The notes under the pieces: model-generated
The model's input: the letters and a program-made list of their open reading frames with translations, nothing else
Told to the model about the DNA's origin: nothing
The model's database searches: none
Translations under genes and position numbers: made by a program
Origin: a virus
Taxonomy: Duplodnaviria > Heunggongvirae > Uroviricota > Caudoviricetes
DNA length: 12,209 bases
IMG/VR virus record: IMGVR_UViG_2547132415_000021
Coordinates: 1-12,209 of that record
Strand: one strand, 5' to 3'
Shown here: piece by piece, positions 7,047 to 11,582 of the stretch
Layout: each line of letters begins with the position of its first letter
Position numbering within the stretch: position 1 is the stretch's first letter

Positions 7047-8237
7047 TTAATTGCTGTTAACCGAGGTGACCAGATTTGCCAGATATTTATCGGTAATACG
7101 CTGGCGCAGGGTCAGGTTTTCGAGAGGAGGCACCGGGGTATAGTCGTAGTCGATATACAGTTTTCCGGCCTTGAGGGTTTCCGCATCGTTGGATTCTTCG
7201 CTGAACCAGCAGGTCGCATCCACGATATAGCCGTTTGTTTTCAGCTCACGGAATTTGGCATTGATGCCGTCAACGATGTCGCGAATCAGCGTTGCGGTGA
7301 TGGGCTTGTCCACCGCCCACATGTGCGCCTCAGCCATCGTGTCGGCCAGCACCTGCGCGGTGCGGGTGTAGTTTTCAAAGAGGAACAGCGGGTCATCGGA
7401 GCAGGTACGGTTACCCCAGAAGCGGAAACCGTCGCGGCGAATCAGCGTTGTGACGCCTGACTCGTTAAGCAGGTCAGCATCGGTGCCGGACTCCTGCAAA
7501 TCCCAGAATACAGATGCGCTGATGCCGGTAACACCGTTCACCCCGACATTGGACAGCGTTTTATGCCAGCCCTGCTCTTGGTCGATTTTAGCGCGCAGAC
7601 CCAGCGCACGGGCGGTGGCATACGCGGTGGCGGTGGTGCTGCTGACCGTATCCCATGCGAGGAAATCCGGCCAGATGACCATCAGCTCACGCTGGCTGAA
7701 ATTCTGGCGGTAGGCTTTCACCTCGGAAATGGTTTTGCAGCCCCATGCGCTGATATACCCGAAAGCGCGCAGCTTCTGACAGACTGATGCCAGTGCAACA
7801 GCAACCTCTTTGGTGTCCAGTCCCGGCACGCCGAGAATACGCGGTTTAACACCGGTTACCGACTCCGCCGCCAGCAGGGCTTTCAGTCCGGTGTACTGAC
7901 CGTTTTCGTCGGTGGTGCCGATGATATTGGAAACGGTCTGCGCGAGTTTCGTTTCCTCGTCTTCGCCGGTGCCGTCTTCCACACGCACGACAACGGTGAC
8001 CGGTTTTGACTGGTCGGCGATAGCCTGCAACGATGCCGCCAGCGTGCCTTTTTTACCGGCCTTTGCAATCGCGCTCTGCACATTGGTAATCAGCACCGGT
8101 TTATTGAGGGGGAAGATTTCCGCATCCGCATCGCTGGCCGTGCAGACCATGCCGACAATGGCCGTGGATACAGTGGAAATGACACGGGTGCCGTCGTTAA
8201 TCTCCAGCACCTGCACGCCGTGATGATAGTCACTCAT
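7047..8237 (-). CDS. FI: Contractile tail sheath protein (P2 gpFI-like), 396 aa
   Basis: 396-aa ORF, first gene of the FI-FII-E-T-U-D block. Length and position match P2 FI. Confidence 0.9.
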   Translation of the reverse strand: MSDYHHGVQVLEINDGTRVISTVSTAIVGMVCTASDADAEIFPLNKPVLITNVQSAIAKAGKKGTLAASLQAIADQSKPVTVVVRVEDGTGEDEETKLAQTVSNIIGTTDENGQYTGLKALLAAESVTGVKPRILGVPGLDTKEVAVALASVCQKLRAFGYISAWGCKTISEVKAYRQNFSQRELMVIWPDFLAWDTVSSTTATAYATARALGLRAKIDQEQGWHKTLSNVGVNGVTGISASVFWDLQESGTDADLLNESGVTTLIRRDGFRFWGNRTCSDDPLFLFENYTRTAQVLADTMAEAHMWAVDKPITATLIRDIVDGINAKFRELKTNGYIVDATCWFSEESNDAETLKAGKLYIDYDYTPVPPLENLTLRQRITDKYLANLVTSVNSN

Positions 8238-8332
8238 CCGTTTAACTCCGTGGTTAATGGGTGCAACTATTTTCTGTTGGGCAGTGCATGAGACGCTATT
8301 TGACCTGACTGGTCAGTGGATGAAACAACAGA
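8238..8332 (-). promoter_or_regulatory. Putative late promoter region upstream of FI (PF-like), containing the dyad TGACC-N5-GGTCA at 8301-8315
   Basis: Seen: an inverted repeat tgacctgactggtca centred about 71 bp upstream of the FI ATG. Established knowledge: P2 late operons start at Ogr-dependent promoters with an upstream dyad. I could not find a clean match to the TGT-N12-ACA element I recall, so this is tentative. Confidence 0.3.
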
Positions 8333-8364
8333 TAAAGAAAAGGCGGGCAATCAGATTGCCTGCC
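8333..8364 (-). terminator. Rho-independent terminator ending the cargo/upstream transcript ahead of the FI promoter
   Basis: 10-bp stem ggcgggcaat/attgcctgcc (one G-U pair) with loop cag at 8342-8364. On the minus strand it is followed by TTTTCTTTAT. Confidence 0.5.
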
Positions 8365-8469
8365 TTGATTTGTGCTCACTCATTTTCCGACTGACAGTTT
8401 ACATAGCCAAAACGCTATCAAATCTGACAGCCTGCTTTGAGCGAGGAACGGACTAAATGCTCATCTCAG

Positions 8470-8516: not shown

Positions 8517-9425
8517 TTATCTGTTAGTTTTATTCTGAATATCTTTGATTACATCGAGGTAATACTCTTTTTCCTTCCCTTTGAACACTAACCCGAAATT
8601 ATGATTAATTATAACCCCAACACTTTTCAAAAGATCGATTTTTGGTTTGGAAGCAGCGTCATTATAATAATAACCAGGGATGTAATATGTCACCTCATAT
8701 TGCAAGCTTATTTTCTTTGCAATTCTAGTCCTTTCTCTAAATGTAAGTAACCACCAAAGATCAATTTCAACAAAATCCAAATTCAAGCCTAAGATATATA
8801 CATCCTTAGTAAAAAAATCATCGATCCAGCTATTACCAATATCATTTGCTTGCAACCGCTTTGTAAGCGGCTCGTTGAACGATTTATTGGAATACTGACT
8901 TCCGGTAGTTGTATACCCCCGCATGCTTTGCAAATAACCACTGTAATGCTCATAGCCAAGAATTATTGAGCTTGGGTTATTCACTGCTCCATGTATATGC
9001 CATATGTTTTTGTTTTTCACCTGATAATGCCTGAAAATATTGTATTTACTTTCTTTTATTACACCTTCATTTTTTAAATCATCAGGCTTGATGCTGTCGT
9101 CTAAACAATATTCAAAAGCTAAATCATAGTTTGTTGTTAAAATATTATTGCATTCTAATCCAATTATTCTTTGATGGATTTCATTTGGCTTTATTGTGTT
9201 TATCTTTGATGCGATGGAATCTTTTATTTTATTTTCTGAAAATCCATTCACTTGCTTATTTGAAATATTAAAATAAATCTCTTCATAGGCTAGTGGAAAT
9301 GGTTTTTCATGCGTGTCAATTTTTATCCCATATGTTGCCCCTAGGTTATTTAAAACATCAAGCCAAGAATTTCCATTTGTAATATTATTTATGCCATTTC
9401 CAATAAGCAGTGAATAATCGCGCAT
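8517..9425 (-). CDS. Standalone SIR2-like (ThsA-type / SIR2_2-like) putative NAD+-hydrolase, 302 aa; candidate antiphage effector
   Basis: N-terminal Gly-rich motif LLIGNGINN (compare ThsA AGAGLS), TTNYD motif at residues 97-101 (ThsA has WTTNYD), and IWHIHGAVNNPSSIILGYEHY at 141-161 (compare ThsA YKMHGDVEHPSEAVLIKDDY). No SLOG or other sensor domain. SD aaggga lies 5 nt upstream of the ATG. Gene is strongly AT-rich compared with the flanking phage genes. Confidence 0.8.
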   Translation of the reverse strand: MRDYSLLIGNGINNITNGNSWLDVLNNLGATYGIKIDTHEKPFPLAYEEIYFNISNKQVNGFSENKIKDSIASKINTIKPNEIHQRIIGLECNNILTTNYDLAFEYCLDDSIKPDDLKNEGVIKESKYNIFRHYQVKNKNIWHIHGAVNNPSSIILGYEHYSGYLQSMRGYTTTGSQYSNKSFNEPLTKRLQANDIGNSWIDDFFTKDVYILGLNLDFVEIDLWWLLTFRERTRIAKKISLQYEVTYYIPGYYYNDAASKPKIDLLKSVGVIINHNFGLVFKGKEKEYYLDVIKDIQNKTNR

Positions 9426-9655: not shown

Positions 9656-9892
9656 CTACGCAGTTTGTGAGTTAGCACCGTCCGCTTCTGGCACGTAGGG
9701 GACCAACCAGCTGGTCCTCAGGTCCGATATGAGCGAGAAGCTAAAATTCGCAGTTGTTCCCAAAGTCGATGGAGGAATTTTTAACATTACAGTGTATTTA
9801 TCAACGGGAAGCAGGTCACTCTCTATGGTTCTCGCATTATTTGTTAACAAAATAACATATTCTTTTGCTTCATCGATAGTATTGAATATCAT
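9656..9892 (-). CDS. Hypothetical small ORF (78 aa) in the spacer between the two cargo genes; uncertain whether real
   Basis: ATG at 9892 with a weak SD-like GGGAA 3 nt upstream. The N-terminal half (MIFNTIDEAKEYVILLTNNARTIESDLLPVDKYTVML) has cargo-like AT-rich codon usage; the C-terminal half runs through a GC-richer patch with inverted repeats and looks less protein-like. Confidence 0.2.
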   Translation of the reverse strand: MIFNTIDEAKEYVILLTNNARTIESDLLPVDKYTVMLKIPPSTLGTTANFSFSLISDLRTSWLVPYVPEADGANSQTA

Positions 9893-9980: not shown

Positions 9981-10823
9981 TTAAAAAACCTTCAGCCATA
10001 ATGTTTCGAGCCTTGTGCCAATCACGCCTTTTCCAATGTTATCCAGCCCTCGAACCATTGCGTATAAGCCACCTAATATTTGAATCCCTTCCTTTACACC
10101 TAAAGACGAATAGTCAAAAGTTGGAAAGAGGACGTAATAAGACATAATTACCCCAATACAACACTCGAAAACTCCATAGGAAAGACGGAAATTTTCTCTG
10201 TACCAAAATAGTATGAGTCCTAAAACGGGTAAACCCATCATTGTCCCCCAAACTGTAATGGTAGATACCAGTACTTCCATATTGGAATAGACGATGTTTG
10301 CGACTAGAGAAGCAAGCCCGCCGAGCACAAAACTGGCTTTTAGGTAACGCTTTTGAGATGAAACAGCTTTTTCTGCTTTCTCTTCTATTTCTTTATTTAG
10401 AAAATCGCCTTTGCTTTCATTTATAAACTCAATGCCAGTCATAGATGTAATATTCCGACTAGCAAGAAAATAAGACAAGGCACGATCATTGGTCACGACG
10501 CAAGGAACTTCTTCTCCTTGCCGTTCTGCGTAAGAAATAGCTATTCGAGCAATATCAAAGTCTGCCCCAGTCAAACGCTGAGCATTTCTATCGGATTGGA
10601 AGATGTCGTTTTTTATTTTTTCAGGCGCTTCAACTATGAGCACACCAGCGGGAATTGACGAGGCCACTAAATCAGTAATATCTGACCATTTGTTGCTTTT
10701 CCCTCTATATGAAAGCTCATGCATCACAGCTCTTGGGATAACTAGCTTCCGATTTCCAGCTCTAGACAATATCTCCGGATGCTGCAATAAAACATTAGTA
10801 TCTATTATGTATCTACTTGGCAT
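9981..10823 (-). CDS. PIN-domain nuclease fused to a C-terminal 3-4 helix transmembrane region, 280 aa; candidate antiphage effector
   Basis: N-terminus YIIDTNVLLQHPEIL resembles the PhoH2/YlaK-type PIN domain, with candidate acidic residues D8, E36, D89/D91 and D113 (VVTNDRAL). C-terminal hydrophobic segments ASFVLGGLASLVANIVYS, VLVSTITVWGTMMGLPVLGLILFWY and YGVFECCIGVIMSYYVLFPTF. SD aggga lies 6 nt upstream of the ATG. AT-rich. Confidence 0.8.
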   Translation of the reverse strand: MPSRYIIDTNVLLQHPEILSRAGNRKLVIPRAVMHELSYRGKSNKWSDITDLVASSIPAGVLIVEAPEKIKNDIFQSDRNAQRLTGADFDIARIAISYAERQGEEVPCVVTNDRALSYFLASRNITSMTGIEFINESKGDFLNKEIEEKAEKAVSSQKRYLKASFVLGGLASLVANIVYSNMEVLVSTITVWGTMMGLPVLGLILFWYRENFRLSYGVFECCIGVIMSYYVLFPTFDYSSLGVKEGIQILGGLYAMVRGLDNIGKGVIGTRLETLWLKVF

Positions 10824-10839
10824 AAGCTATCCCTGATAC

Positions 10840-10870
10840 CTTAATTTATCAAATAAAACGGTATGTAAAC
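10840..10870 (-). promoter_or_regulatory. Possible sigma70-like promoter for the PIN-TM gene (-35 TTTACA at 10864-10869, -10 TAAATT at 10843-10848 on the minus strand)
   Basis: Seen in sequence only. The spacer is 15 bp, which is suboptimal, so this is a weak candidate. Confidence 0.2.
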
Positions 10871-10970
10871 ATATAAAACATAACTTCACAACTCACTTAT
10901 CAATGCAAGTTTCCCAACCAGGCAAGCCATGTGCTTAGATATCTGACCTAACGTTTCTAAATTGATGAAT

Positions 10971-10994
10971 GTCCGCTATTGGCACGGAGCGGAC
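10971..10994. other. Hairpin gtccgct-N10-agcggac about 60 nt downstream of the G stop codon
   Basis: 7-bp perfect inverted repeat with a 10-nt loop. There is no clear U-tail on either strand, so its role (weak terminator or RNA processing site at the end of the H-G operon) is unclear. Confidence 0.3.
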
Positions 10995-11054
10995 TGTCAG
11001 ATTAGGCTTTACTCTGTGCCATAGATATGTAAGCTCCCACCAGAGCTCATACAC

Positions 11055-11582
11055 TTATTGCGGCATTTCCGGCCATTCAGGATTTGCAGTATCCACACGA
11101 CTGACAAGAACGCTGTAGCGTTCCCATGCCTCCAGTCGACTGCGCTCCTCATCTGTTGCCATATTCAGCCTGACAGCGCGCTCCAGCGGCAAAATCAGGG
11201 ATTCGGCTTCGGAAAGCAAAGTTGCCTTTTGTGATTCTGCCAGTTGCTGCTGTTCGTCTGCCGTATAAATCCGCTTAATCACTGCACCATCCTTAAACAT
11301 CCATTTACCTGAGTCATCAGCACGCCGGTTGGCAGTAATATCAGGAACCTCAACGACGCTAAAACCTTCAGGATTAAGCGTTGAAGCATCTCTGGTGATG
11401 GCGACAATAATATTATTTTCATCATAAACAATCTTTATTGTCTCTGGCTGAAAATTACTTACTTCCTCATACCAGTTTTTTCCGTCTTCGGACCATAACC
11501 AGATAACATCAAAATTCTTTGTTAGCTGATATTGCTCTTTTGTTTTTGGATTACCTGACTTAATGTTCTTTAAATGCTGCAT
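11055..11582 (-). CDS. G: Tail fibre assembly protein (P2 gpG-like), 175 aa
   Basis: 175-aa ORF immediately downstream of the tail fibre gene (H stop at 11586-11588, G start at 11582). Length and position match P2 G. Confidence 0.88.

Follow-up and report, generated by a model that had tools for sequence, protein, structure and literature searches.

The PIN-TM gene of the window (the whole stretch of DNA analysed, 12,209 nt) encodes a 280-amino-acid protein in which an N-terminal PIN_4 nuclease domain is connected by a charged linker to a conserved four-helix membrane module, and the gene is located in a DNA cassette of its own, independent of the neighbouring SIR2/AbiH-like gene. With slightly better than even confidence, PIN-TM is considered a single-gene, prophage-borne anti-phage RNase that is gated or confined by its membrane module, of which we infer the anti-phage role, the trigger and the topology. 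The ORF is intact over the span reported in the first-pass annotation, and its start agrees with the N-termini of homologues in alignment. In the E. coli genome annotation the product is merely a "PIN domain-containing protein" (WP_097498779). The features of the region, all on the minus strand, are as follows.

8430–8453, minus: type-B hairpin GTCCGTTCCTCGCTCAAAGCAGGC, closing the SIR2 cassette and bordering the hotspot on the FI side
8517–9425, minus: SIR2_2/AbiH-like gene, 302 aa (Pfam SIR2_2, E=2.8e-10; PADLOC)
9656–9892, minus: intergenic 78-aa ORF (PIN-TM to SIR2), unlikely to be a real gene
9680–9703, minus: type-A hairpin GTCCCCTACGTGCCAGAAGCGGAC, junction of the PIN-TM and SIR2 cassettes
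9722–9745, minus: degenerate type-B hairpin, downstream end of the PIN-TM cassette (read from the sequence)
9981–10823, minus: PIN-TM gene, ATG start, 280 aa and stop (ORF list)
9984–10349, minus: predicted four-helix membrane module, residues 159–280 (hydropathy, positive-inside rule, AlphaFold2, invariant motifs)
10350–10415, minus: charged helical linker, residues 137–158 (AlphaFold2 secondary structure, D113-to-S164 spacing)
10416–10823, minus: PIN_4 nuclease domain, residues 1–136 (Pfam, PDB profile, Foldseek, tetrad conservation)
10824–10970, minus: cassette leader of 147 nt from the upstream hairpin to the ATG, travelling with the PIN-TM gene
10971–10994, minus: type-A hairpin GTCCGCTCCGTGCCAATAGCGGAC, upstream end of the PIN-TM cassette and G-side border of the hotspot

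The architecture first proposed for the protein, i.e. a PIN domain of the PIN_4 type, a charged linker and three to four hydrophobic helices, was upheld by Pfam, AlphaFold2 and hydropathy. The N-terminus matched the Pfam PIN_4 profile (PF13638) at residues 5–121 with an E-value of 3.3e-11 and 44.1 bits, well above the cut-off of 21.9, and the family profile run against PDB returned the Dis3/Rrp44 PIN domain (E~7e-4), the catalytic Asp/Glu positions being in register. The full-length AlphaFold2 model (pLDDT 83) displayed the parallel beta-sheet flanked by helices of the PIN fold together with the C-terminal helices, and in Foldseek this model retrieved the PIN structures of SMG6, Dis3 and Nmd4 (probability 1.0, E~1e-3). 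The acidic tetrad D8, E36, D88 and D113 aligned with the catalytic positions of Dis3. Both residues named in the first-pass annotation, D8 and D113, are real members of this tetrad, being conserved in 119 and 109 of the 124 family representatives, respectively, with 100/124 for D88 and 95/124 for E36.

The earlier label "PhoH2/YlaK-type" holds in the sense of the PIN_4 family, which includes SMG6/EST1A, the N-terminal PIN domain of Dis3/Rrp44 and bacterial PhoH2/YlaK, and with which PIN-TM shares the fold and the metal site of four acidic residues. It does not extend to the PhoH ATPase domain, which is absent: NCBIfam PhoH2 scored 14.9 bits against a cut-off of 680, at residues 4–40 only, and the PHROG PhoH-like match was limited to a 42-residue N-terminal stretch (residues 3–44). 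Where PIN_4 relatives carry a PhoH ATPase/helicase, an exonuclease or a 14-3-3-like domain, PIN-TM instead carries the C-terminal four-helix module. Dis3/SMG6-type PIN endoribonucleases cut single-stranded RNA, single-stranded DNA is left uncut by SMG6, and PIN_4 relatives prefer single-stranded RNA (Matelska 2017). The PIN domain of PIN-TM most likely is catalytically active, as an endonuclease on single-stranded RNA that depends on Mg2+/Mn2+, and we infer RNA as its substrate.

The linker (about residues 137–158) is charged and helical, and in the AlphaFold2 model it merges into the first transmembrane segment as one helix of residues 144–180. Its sequence is merely 14% identical across the family, and its length is nearly fixed, with 51–53 residues between D113 and S164 in 96/124 members. 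Family-averaged Kyte-Doolittle hydropathy was 2.0 for TM1 (residues 161–179), 1.9 for TM2 (189–207) and 1.6 for TM3 (214–232, with the invariant E220). For the fourth helix (243–267, with the invariant R258, D261 and N262), which is followed by a short C-terminal helix, the average was only 1.1, and this helix is therefore regarded as amphipathic and too weakly hydrophobic for a classical transmembrane span. Counts of K+R in the successive loops alternate (2.9 / 0.8 / 2.8 / 0.7 / 4.7), which fits, and thereby supports, a predicted four-pass topology with both termini inside. When modelled alone, the module reached an AlphaFold2 pLDDT of 88.5. No counterpart of it was found in Pfam, NCBIfam, PADLOC, PDB or BFVD. 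A Walker-A-like string, G259-x4-G-K, was considered as a nucleotide-binding loop and rejected, as it falls in a predicted helix without P-loop fold.

The membrane module is the best conserved part of the protein. Its motifs are YRE-x2-RLSYG-x2-E and GGLY-x2-VRGLDN, and the conserved residues R209, R213-L-x-Y-G, E220 and V-R258-G-L-D-N are predicted to lie at the cytoplasmic face. Mean pairwise identity was 42–46% for residues 209–280 versus 23% for the PIN domain, in a comparison biased towards the membrane module by representatives chosen with a C-terminal profile; the same order of conservation was also seen among matches to the full-length query. The spacing from R209 to E220 is 11 residues in all 124 members. 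The module may be a pore or a sensor, as proposed in the first-pass annotation, and its strong conservation argues that it is more than a localisation tag or passive anchor. Moreover, some divergent relatives have kept the module while having lost PIN acidic residues, or the PIN domain altogether, which suggests that the module may be functional in its own right. The seemingly complete protein P0221, for instance, has a coiled-coil N-terminus in place of the PIN domain ahead of the module. Short "module-only" proteins were considered as proof of a free-standing module and found to be weak evidence, because at least one of them, L045, is a broken gene in which a stop codon severs the PIN part from the rest.

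In the favoured model, PIN-TM would be a polytopic inner-membrane protein with its N-terminal PIN_4 domain facing the cytoplasm, where a helix of fixed length would join this domain to the conserved N-in/C-in module of four helices. The gene forms a self-contained, mobile cassette with its own leader in the G/FI (Z/fun) hotspot, in tandem with the unrelated SIR2/AbiH-like cassette, and would most likely be expressed from the prophage as a one-protein exclusion or abortive-infection factor. The RNase would be held in a confined or latent state by the membrane module, whose conserved motifs at the cytoplasmic face would tie cleavage to an event that accompanies infection at the inner membrane. 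Should PIN-TM indeed protect against phage, it would be a compact one-gene system of unusual logic, built around a conserved membrane part rather than around the nuclease. Such a core suggests that a signal is sensed, or activity regulated, at the inner membrane, a level at which the workings of few defence proteins are known.

The roles of the two parts may also be reversed, with the membrane module as the effector, i.e. a pore, ion leak or disruptor which kills or arrests the cell, and the PIN domain as the sensor that triggers it on binding or cutting a phage nucleic acid. This is rather unlikely in our judgement, although the superior conservation of the module, the presence of the invariant charged and polar residues E220, R258, D261 and N262 in or at the membrane and the rigid spacing all speak for it, as do P0106/P0107 and L042–L044, in which the module is kept while the PIN acidic residues degenerate, and the coiled-coil variant P0221. 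Membrane effectors triggered by a soluble sensor domain are also common in known systems: CBASS, Pycsar, type III CRISPR (Cam1, Csx28) and type II Thoeris. On the other hand, conservation of the PIN tetrad is strong within the core family, although a pure binding sensor would have no need of it, and some of the short "module-only" matches are broken genes.

Cam1, Csx28, Pycsar PycTM, the CBASS 2TM and 4TM effectors and the TM-type ThsA sense a nucleotide messenger made by a partner enzyme. PIN-TM is generally similar to them as a small protein with a cytoplasmic domain and a conserved multi-helix membrane part, found in defence islands. It differs in having no conserved partner and in possessing, as its soluble domain, a nuclease whose active site is intact. 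Sequence or fold similarity to these defence effectors was not found in PADLOC, PDB or BFVD.

Membrane-anchored nuclease effectors had been called unusual in the first-pass annotation, which is partly so: both the COG4956 family, with four transmembrane helices, PIN and TRAM, and SNIPE are known. The COG4956 membrane PIN family is presumably the same as YacL. PIN.COG4956 proteins have four N-terminal transmembrane helices followed by PIN and TRAM domains, are of unknown function and number about 2000 sequences, almost all bacterial (Matelska 2017). They resemble PIN-TM in the fusion of PIN to about four transmembrane helices, and their structure 3ix7 was among the Foldseek matches (E~1e-2). 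Their helices, however, are N-terminal and those of PIN-TM C-terminal; their TRAM domain is missing from PIN-TM according to Pfam; their PIN domain is of the PF01850 type, not PIN_4; and they are widespread and core-like, whereas the PIN-TM family is sparse and mobile.

SNIPE is a DNA-cutting single protein with GIY-YIG and DUF4041 domains and one N-terminal transmembrane helix (Saxton et al., Nature 2026). Both proteins have a nuclease that faces the cytoplasm from an inner-membrane anchor, on the PIN-TM side by prediction, with the tether proposed to limit its reach. Against the domains and the single N-terminal helix of SNIPE, PIN-TM has PIN_4, four C-terminal helices and RNA as the expected target, and Pfam found PIN-type domains only. 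By analogy, the PIN domain could act at the entry site and cut the phage genome, likeliest as ssRNA or ssDNA, while it crosses the inner membrane, leaving the host unharmed. SNIPE gives the precedent of a constitutively membrane-bound nuclease whose tether prevents self-damage (Saxton 2026), the fixed linker would set the active site at a constant distance from the membrane, the PIN_4 preference for single-stranded RNA (Matelska 2017) would suit such a target, and prophage-encoded exclusion suits the fun locus. We nevertheless consider entry-site cleavage quite improbable, as in SNIPE the nuclease is the most and the transmembrane region the least conserved part, which is the reverse of PIN-TM. 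Furthermore, PIN-TM is devoid of a DNA-binding or tape-measure-binding domain and, in Pfam and PADLOC, of domain homology to SNIPE. Double-stranded DNA, the form in which most coliphages deliver their genomes, is also not a known substrate of PIN_4-type enzymes.

More than 100 full-length homologues of PIN-TM were identified. The C-terminal profile search yielded 1948 clusters at E<1e-3, and among the top 150 of these matches nearly all share the layout of about 280 aa. No paper on the protein or its architecture was found in the literature, and with hundreds of diverse members annotated no further than "PIN domain", one experiment would name many genes. The gene is horizontally mobile and accessory. 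It was present in 1 of 5426 complete E. coli genomes, and its relatives are scattered across phyla with up to 67–79% identity between E. coli and Chlorobaculum or Cellvibrio. Carriers include two different E. coli prophages, a Pectobacterium integrative element, an Erwiniaceae IncFII plasmid and a Sulfuricurvum plasmid. Only four PIN-TM loci were obtained by the IMG/VR search, and no homologue was found in deposited phage genomes (50,697 records).

An all-against-all comparison of neighbours revealed no conserved partner gene outside closely related genomes. Recurrent downstream ORFs of about 230–270 aa were considered as partners and rejected, since they are mutually unrelated apart from two epsilonproteobacterial HNH-like proteins. 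Many homologue loci outside Enterobacterales are without recognisable defence or mobile-element neighbours, and several have ordinary metabolic ones. In Reyranella and Rhizobium, a 32%-identical relative lies 4 nt behind an aminotransferase gene in conserved synteny, and it could have a housekeeping role in that clade.

These loci bear on a non-immune role of PIN-TM, either as a selfish toxin or addiction module stabilising the mobile element or as a physiological membrane enzyme of RNA processing, to which we assign little probability. PIN domains typically serve as toxins in toxin-antitoxin systems, and membrane PIN proteins, probably housekeeping, exist in COG4956 (Matelska 2017); the metabolic neighbours and the syntenic position of the Reyranella-type relatives point the same way. 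Against this, no antitoxin-like gene was recognised. The 147-nt leader contains no ORF, no conserved neighbour was present in 18 homologue loci which could be a VapBC-type antitoxin gene, and no Rfam match or repeat array indicative of an RNA antitoxin or other non-coding RNA was detected. The 78-aa ORF downstream had no family matches in Pfam, PADLOC, NCBIfam or PHROGs and its frame is cut where the PIN-TM cassette has another neighbour; it was rejected as an antitoxin or immunity gene because it straddles the B/A cassette junction. The sparse, horizontally scattered distribution is also unfit for housekeeping, and the hotspot and the cassette arrays are rich in defence genes.

Elsewhere, homologue loci adjoin Dsr1, a type II-A retron, an LmuB-like ATPase, and a methyltransferase with a SIR2-like gene, and judged by these neighbours, by the P2 site and by the defence genes carried in the same cassette system, PIN-TM occupies the hotspot, island and mobile-element locations expected of a defence gene. 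Membership in a known defence family was rejected, as PADLOC-DB v2.0.0 (2023) had no family match at E<=1, NCBIfam gave nothing meaningful and PHROGs only the 42-residue PhoH-like stretch. The location in a defence hotspot, as claimed in the first-pass annotation, was substantiated: the island is situated between the tail genes G and FI of a P2-like prophage, a site known as the defence-enriched fun locus (Vassallo 2022). Other cargo was found at this G/FI (Z/fun) site in 1017 genomes.

At the DNA level the island comprises two independent cassettes, each bounded by 24-nt palindromes of the form GTCCGCT-N10-AGCGGAC, which coincide exactly with the limits of the variable G/FI cargo in P2-like prophages. 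At the G side, the type-A hairpin at 10971–10994 was identified by repeat family D3 and by pattern search, with 0.00 chance matches expected, and homology blocks stop there. At the FI side, the conserved P2 flank (window 8002–8454) stops at the B hairpin at 8430–8453 in prophages with other cargo. Between them, the DNA-homology block of PIN-TM extends from 10985 to 9680 and that of SIR2 from 9703 to 8434, so that the two separate blocks meet at the hairpin at 9680–9703, the left flank of which resembles PIN-TM cassettes elsewhere and the right flank SIR2 cassettes elsewhere. The degenerate B hairpin at 9722–9745 (loop TCGCTC; left stem 4/7, right stem 6/7) lies exactly 42 nt, start to start, before this next A hairpin, which is the canonical B-to-A spacing, and an intact copy of it was found in L031.

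The presence of the SIR2-like neighbour at 8517–9425 was confirmed by the SIR2_2 match; its pairing with PIN-TM was not. The first-pass annotation had suggested a dual-effector or sensor-effector pair and a co-occurrence check with the SIR2-like gene, and in this check neither a homologue of the window SIR2 nor any other conserved neighbour was found at the 18 PIN-TM homologue loci from other genomes. A two-gene system of PIN-TM and SIR2, as sensor plus effector or as two effectors, is largely refuted by distribution and highly improbable, even though the genes are adjacent on the same strand in the window, the exact PIN-TM protein in the P2 hotspot is always accompanied by SIR2 (in at least seven places), and a SIR2-family gene occurs near two distant homologues, namely Dsr1 in L021 and, two genes off in L018, a small SIR2-like gene. 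The latter shares no more than its superfamily with the window SIR2, and Dsr1 is a known stand-alone system, located on the opposite strand in L021. Each gene also occurs without the other: PIN-TM is without SIR2 as a 98%-identical variant in another E. coli prophage and as a 94%-identical variant in a Pectobacterium mobile element, and SIR2 homologues of 97, 81 and 71% identity are without PIN-TM. The SIR2 gene has a large family of its own, far bigger than that of PIN-TM. Finally, the two genes are 555 bp apart, differ in G+C content (28–35% vs about 40%) and are enclosed in homology blocks each with its own hairpin boundaries. The SIR2/AbiH-like gene is an independent neighbouring cassette and no partner of PIN-TM, and this separation averts the cloning and testing of a wrong two-gene model.

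The geometry of the junction is fixed as a 66-nt site of B hairpin, 18 nt and A hairpin, 42 nt start to start, with the consensus GTCCGCT-nnTCGCTCnn-AGCGGAC-18 nt-GTCCGCT-nnGTGCCAnn-AGCGGAC and no GTTRRRY core. About 14% of complete E. coli genomes contain this B-18-A junction. The cassettes hold one or a few genes in either orientation and are strung into arrays, and elsewhere the same hairpin-bounded cassettes carry PD-T7-1, PD-T7-5, PARIS AriA, Septu PtuA, Gabija GajA, DarT and others. The hairpins provide a base-pair-exact rule for where hotspot cargo starts and stops, which could help in mining new defence genes and may point to a mechanism devoted to exchanging cassettes. Earlier studies of P2 hotspots may describe such borders.

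PIN-TM and SIR2 may be cargo of a hitherto undescribed, integron-like system of cassette exchange in which the recombination is hypothetical. The recurrent 200-aa tyrosine recombinase WP_001305361.1 and the P2 integrase would be candidate enzymes for it. A combined reading, in which a one-protein membrane sensor gating a tethered RNase is spread by integron-like, site-specific recombination of hairpin-delimited cassettes among Enterobacterales prophage hotspots and chromosomal islands, is clearly speculative and unlikely as a whole; there, the module would read an infection signal at the inner membrane, e.g. loss of membrane potential or genome entry.

Integron cassettes and their attC sites are similar in that the cargo is bounded by imperfect palindromes, forms arrays with junctions of fixed geometry and is very diverse, including defence genes. 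In contrast to the hairpins here, attC sites have R′/R″ boxes of GTTRRRY, and integrons have an IntI-type integrase and attI adjoining; neither was seen beside these arrays, and no integrase flanks the P2 site. A consensus promoter scan of the PIN-TM leader gave no strong site, and the promoter of the cassette, together with its ribosome-binding site, is for this reason only presumed to lie within the 147 nt. Unlike integron cassettes, those described here carry their own leaders and occur in both orientations, and the leader of PIN-TM is 95–97.5% identical alongside the gene in three unrelated contexts. A TTTACA ... TAAATT pair was spotted in this leader by eye.

The window corresponds to the right-hand end of a P2-like prophage, beside the chromosomal gene trhP, with the P2-like genes ogr, D, U, the tape-measure gene, E, FII and FI on the minus strand. 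Between FI and the tail-fibre assembly gene G, which is followed by the end of H, lies a low-G+C island of two genes, a SIR2-like gene and PIN-TM, which encodes a PIN_4 nuclease domain joined to a C-terminal membrane module. The PIN-TM ORF extends over exactly 10823 to 9981, as first annotated, and its product is 280 aa long.

Features of the island and its flanks (window positions)
7047-8237, minus strand: FI (sheath)
8430-8453: 24-nt hairpin, end of a DNA-homology block
8517-9425, minus strand: SIR2-like gene
9680-9703: 24-nt hairpin, end of DNA-homology blocks
9722-9745: degenerate fourth hairpin, read from the sequence
9981-10823, minus strand: PIN-TM
10971-10994: 24-nt hairpin, end of a DNA-homology block
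11055-11582: tail-fibre assembly gene G, beyond the island

P2 itself carries fun at the G/FI position, its second variable locus. The proposed location in a phage defence hotspot was borne out, as Vassallo et al. (2022) describe this P2 G/FI (fun) locus as a second one enriched in defence genes. The same flanks enclosed other cargo in 1017 of 5426 complete E. coli genomes, including FRG-domain, HNH, DUF3606 and hypothetical proteins and a “lysogenic protein”, and the PIN-TM/SIR2 island was found in a single one, E. coli ZH177 (NZ_CM125652). The prophage copy of this strain has decayed relative to the window, with D a pseudogene, the tail genes from FI to U deleted and several further pseudogenes, and both cassette genes are intact, consistent with their retention after the death of the prophage.

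On DNA comparison, the region common to other PIN-TM contexts (10985 to 9680) separated from that common to the Klebsiella and Dickeya SIR2 loci (9703 to 8434), and the island therefore consists of two cassettes. Both homology blocks terminate in a 24-nt imperfect palindrome, GTCCGCT-N10-AGCGGAC, of which none is expected by chance, and where P2-like prophages hold other cargo, the conserved flanks end exactly at the two outer hairpins, which are the exact borders of the G/FI hotspot. With its own leader of 147 nt, PIN-TM forms a self-sufficient unit that is moved as one piece. An inverted 10-nt repeat brackets the whole island directly outside the outer hairpins (left 8421-8430, AATCTGACAG; right 10994-11003, CTGTCAGATT), and the same motif follows the downstream (type B) hairpin in other P2-like prophages as well as in the Pectobacterium element with a PIN-TM copy. 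A 78-aa ORF between the two genes (9656-9892, minus strand) returned no family matches, spans the B/A junction of the cassettes, and is therefore most likely spurious.

The dual-effector or sensor-effector pair with SIR2 suggested in the first-pass annotation was rejected, since the two genes are distributed apart and lie in separate DNA blocks. A homologue of the window SIR2 gene was present at none of 18 PIN-TM homologue loci obtained by scanning 100,044 species genomes, and all-against-all comparison of neighbours revealed no conserved partner. SIR2 accompanied the exact PIN-TM protein every time in the P2 hotspot; it was absent beside a 98% variant immediately following a DNA-invertase gene in another E. 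coli prophage, and beside a 94% copy in a Pectobacterium element with integrase and relaxase. The SIR2 family is much larger (1394 matches below 1e-10), and no PIN-TM lay near its homologues of 97%, 81% and 71% identity in Klebsiella, Dickeya and Proteus. Within the window, the two genes are separated by 555 bp and are unequal in G+C. The 302-aa SIR2 product is a SIR2_2, weakly AbiH-like protein with motifs TTNYD and HIHG; PADLOC gave weak matches only, to ThsA and LmuA in their SIR2 domains. Its gene, from a family of more than 1,394 members and standing alone in Klebsiella, Dickeya and Proteus, is itself a mobile cassette and probably constitutes an independent defence candidate of one gene, targeting NAD.

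PIN-TM belongs to the PIN_4 domain family, every defining feature open to computation having been found. Residues 5-121 matched Pfam PIN_4 with 44.1 bits (cut-off 21.9). The “PhoH2/YlaK-type” designation is right only as far as a PIN_4-type domain goes. In the PDB, a profile of 28 family members matched the Dis3/Rrp44 PIN domain (E about 7e-4), whose aligned Asp/Glu residues correspond to D8, E36, D88 and D113; these are kept in 119, 95, 100 and 109 of 124 family representatives, respectively, and the active site, including the originally singled-out D8 and D113, is thus under selection. The AlphaFold2 model (pLDDT 83, pTM 0.71) has a PIN fold at residues 1-136, with Foldseek matches to the PIN domains of SMG6, Dis3 and Nmd4, followed as expected by the charged linker.

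From the linker, a single long helix (144-180) continues into the first hydrophobic segment of the model, and further helices are at 191-211, 213-230, 243-267 and 273-279. The anticipated three to four hydrophobic helices were recovered by family-averaged hydropathy as two clear transmembrane segments (161-179, 189-207), a borderline third (214-232) holding an invariant glutamate, and a fourth under the usual threshold. Lys+Arg counts alternate in successive loops (2.9, 0.8, 2.8, 0.7, 4.7), the pattern that would be expected of four spans with both ends cytoplasmic. Invariant or nearly invariant residues are grouped at W192-G-T, R209, R213-L-x-Y-G, E220, G224 and G252-L-Y-x-x-V-R-G-L-D-N, and if the topology is N-in/C-in, the strongest pair of motifs would lie at the cytoplasmic face beside the tethered nuclease.

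By sequence conservation, the membrane module is the core of the family. Mean pairwise identity was 23% in the PIN domain, 14% in the linker, 42% in residues 209-236 and 46% in residues 246-280 among the 124 representatives, whose selection by the C-terminal profile biases this comparison; matches to the full-length query gave the same pattern. Spacing within the module is near-constant (R209 to E220 11 residues in 124/124, W192 to R209 17 residues in 121), whereas the loops of the PIN domain vary widely, and the linker is constant in length and variable in sequence. A few distant relatives (L042 3032-4054, L043 4533-5531, L044 1589-2239, P0106, P0107) retain the module (RLSYG ... GLY-x-VRG-x-DN) with PIN domains that have lost acidic residues, and one complete 209-aa protein (P0221) has a coiled-coil N-terminus in place of the PIN domain, which suggests that the module may function without nuclease activity. 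Of the short forms, at least one represents a broken gene.

PIN-TM would be a membrane-gated or membrane-confined RNase, because characterised PIN_4 relatives cleave single-stranded RNA with Mn2+ or Mg2+, the active site is conserved, and its distance from the module is fixed. The conserved face of the module would be turned towards the PIN domain, and the module could respond to a collapse of the membrane potential, to a membrane protein of phage or host origin, or to the entry of a genome. One live alternative takes the module itself as the toxic effector and the PIN domain as its trigger, as favoured by the reversed conservation, higher in the module than in the PIN domain, and by the relatives with degenerate PIN domains; the conserved active site speaks for the RNase reading. 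Also in contention is an entry-site nuclease like SNIPE, the conservation pattern of which is, however, opposite to that of PIN-TM. The toxin of a toxin-antitoxin system is a weak candidate, as the cassette contains no second gene or RNA element. PIN-TM is none of PhoH2/YlaK, COG4956 membrane PIN-TRAM, VapBC toxin or SNIPE, and is not included in PADLOC v2. Membrane-tethered nucleases are by now a known kind in defence, which makes the first claim of their being unusual only partly true, and small proteins pairing a soluble domain with TM helices are likewise known; new is the predicted PIN_4 RNase with a C-terminal, highly conserved, otherwise undescribed four-helix module, acting alone.

A word-indexed search identified 109 family proteins, nearly all full length at about 280 aa, in Gamma-, Beta-, Alpha- and Epsilonproteobacteria, Chlorobi, Bacteroidota and candidate phyla. 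Chlorobaculum and Cellvibrio homologues share 67-79% identity with the E. coli protein, indicating horizontal transfer. Against 1.84 billion representatives, the C-terminal-module profile matched 1948 clusters at E<1e-3, 435 of them at E<1e-10. The module lay at residues ~150-280 in nearly all of the best 150 matches, and 118 of the 143 new proteins among these also matched the family PIN profile. One PLSDB plasmid carried the family, 50,697 deposited phage genomes contained no member, and NCBIfam, PADLOC and PHROGs gave no family name beyond the PIN match.

PIN-TM is associated with validated defence genes on three levels, namely in the hotspot, within the cassette system and among the neighbours of distant homologues. 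These neighbours include Dsr1 (IncFII plasmid), a type II-A retron (Pseudomonas), an LmuB-like ATPase (a Bacteroidetes genome), and a methyltransferase together with a SIR2-like gene (Dyadobacter). A defence role is likely but not certain, because about half of the distant loci have either nothing recognisable beside them or ordinary metabolic genes, and Reyranella-type relatives are syntenic behind an aminotransferase gene.

The hairpins are of two loop kinds, type A (..GTGCCA..) upstream and type B (..TCGCTC..) downstream of the cargo. An exact type A search of IMG/VR returned at least 119 stretches, of which 80 loci were analysed together with related loci, and hairpins were located besides the window in L031, L036, L040, L046, L047, L053, L056, L124 and L167-L169. 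The order A-cargo-B was found in 73/80 cases, and the next A followed B at 42 nt start-to-start in 25/31. In the resulting 66-nt B-18-A junction, the spacer is conserved and the flanks are unrelated. Hairpin stems show compensatory variants and are mismatched at junctions, as expected of exchange within the loop. Of 5426 complete E. coli genomes, 742 contain the junction, in every case within intergenic DNA that is unannotated, and P2 G/FI sites constitute only about a quarter of the hairpin loci. The arrangement resembles integron arrays, but without attC signatures or an adjacent integrase. No description of it was found in the searchable literature; it may overlap with what a 2004 study by Nilsson and co-workers reported for P2.

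Cassette cargo in viral contigs L048-L127 was extremely diverse, comprising 121 ORFs in 101 clusters, with the defence genes PD-T7-1, PD-T7-5, PD-T4-4_A, PARIS AriA/AriAB, Septu PtuA, Gabija GajA, MADS mad3, Menshen NsnB, SAVED-HNH and DarT, the PADLOC candidates PDC-S06 and PDC-M68A, some regulators and enzymes, and many proteins without a family; the hairpins could thus mark loci for mining new defence genes. Most recurrent among the sampled cassettes was a 269-271-aa protein of phrog_21495 (E=2.6e-193; L031 6200-7009, L054, L085, L109, L169 4024-4833), which adjoins PIN-TM in the second of its E. coli prophages. A 200-aa tyrosine recombinase (WP_001305361.1, “site-specific integrase”), similar in size to FimB/FimE, recurs inside arrays at about 9 of the sampled loci (L167 6608-7210, L169 2339-2941, also L059, L065, L080, L084, L129 and L151) and is a candidate enzyme for moving or inverting the cassettes.
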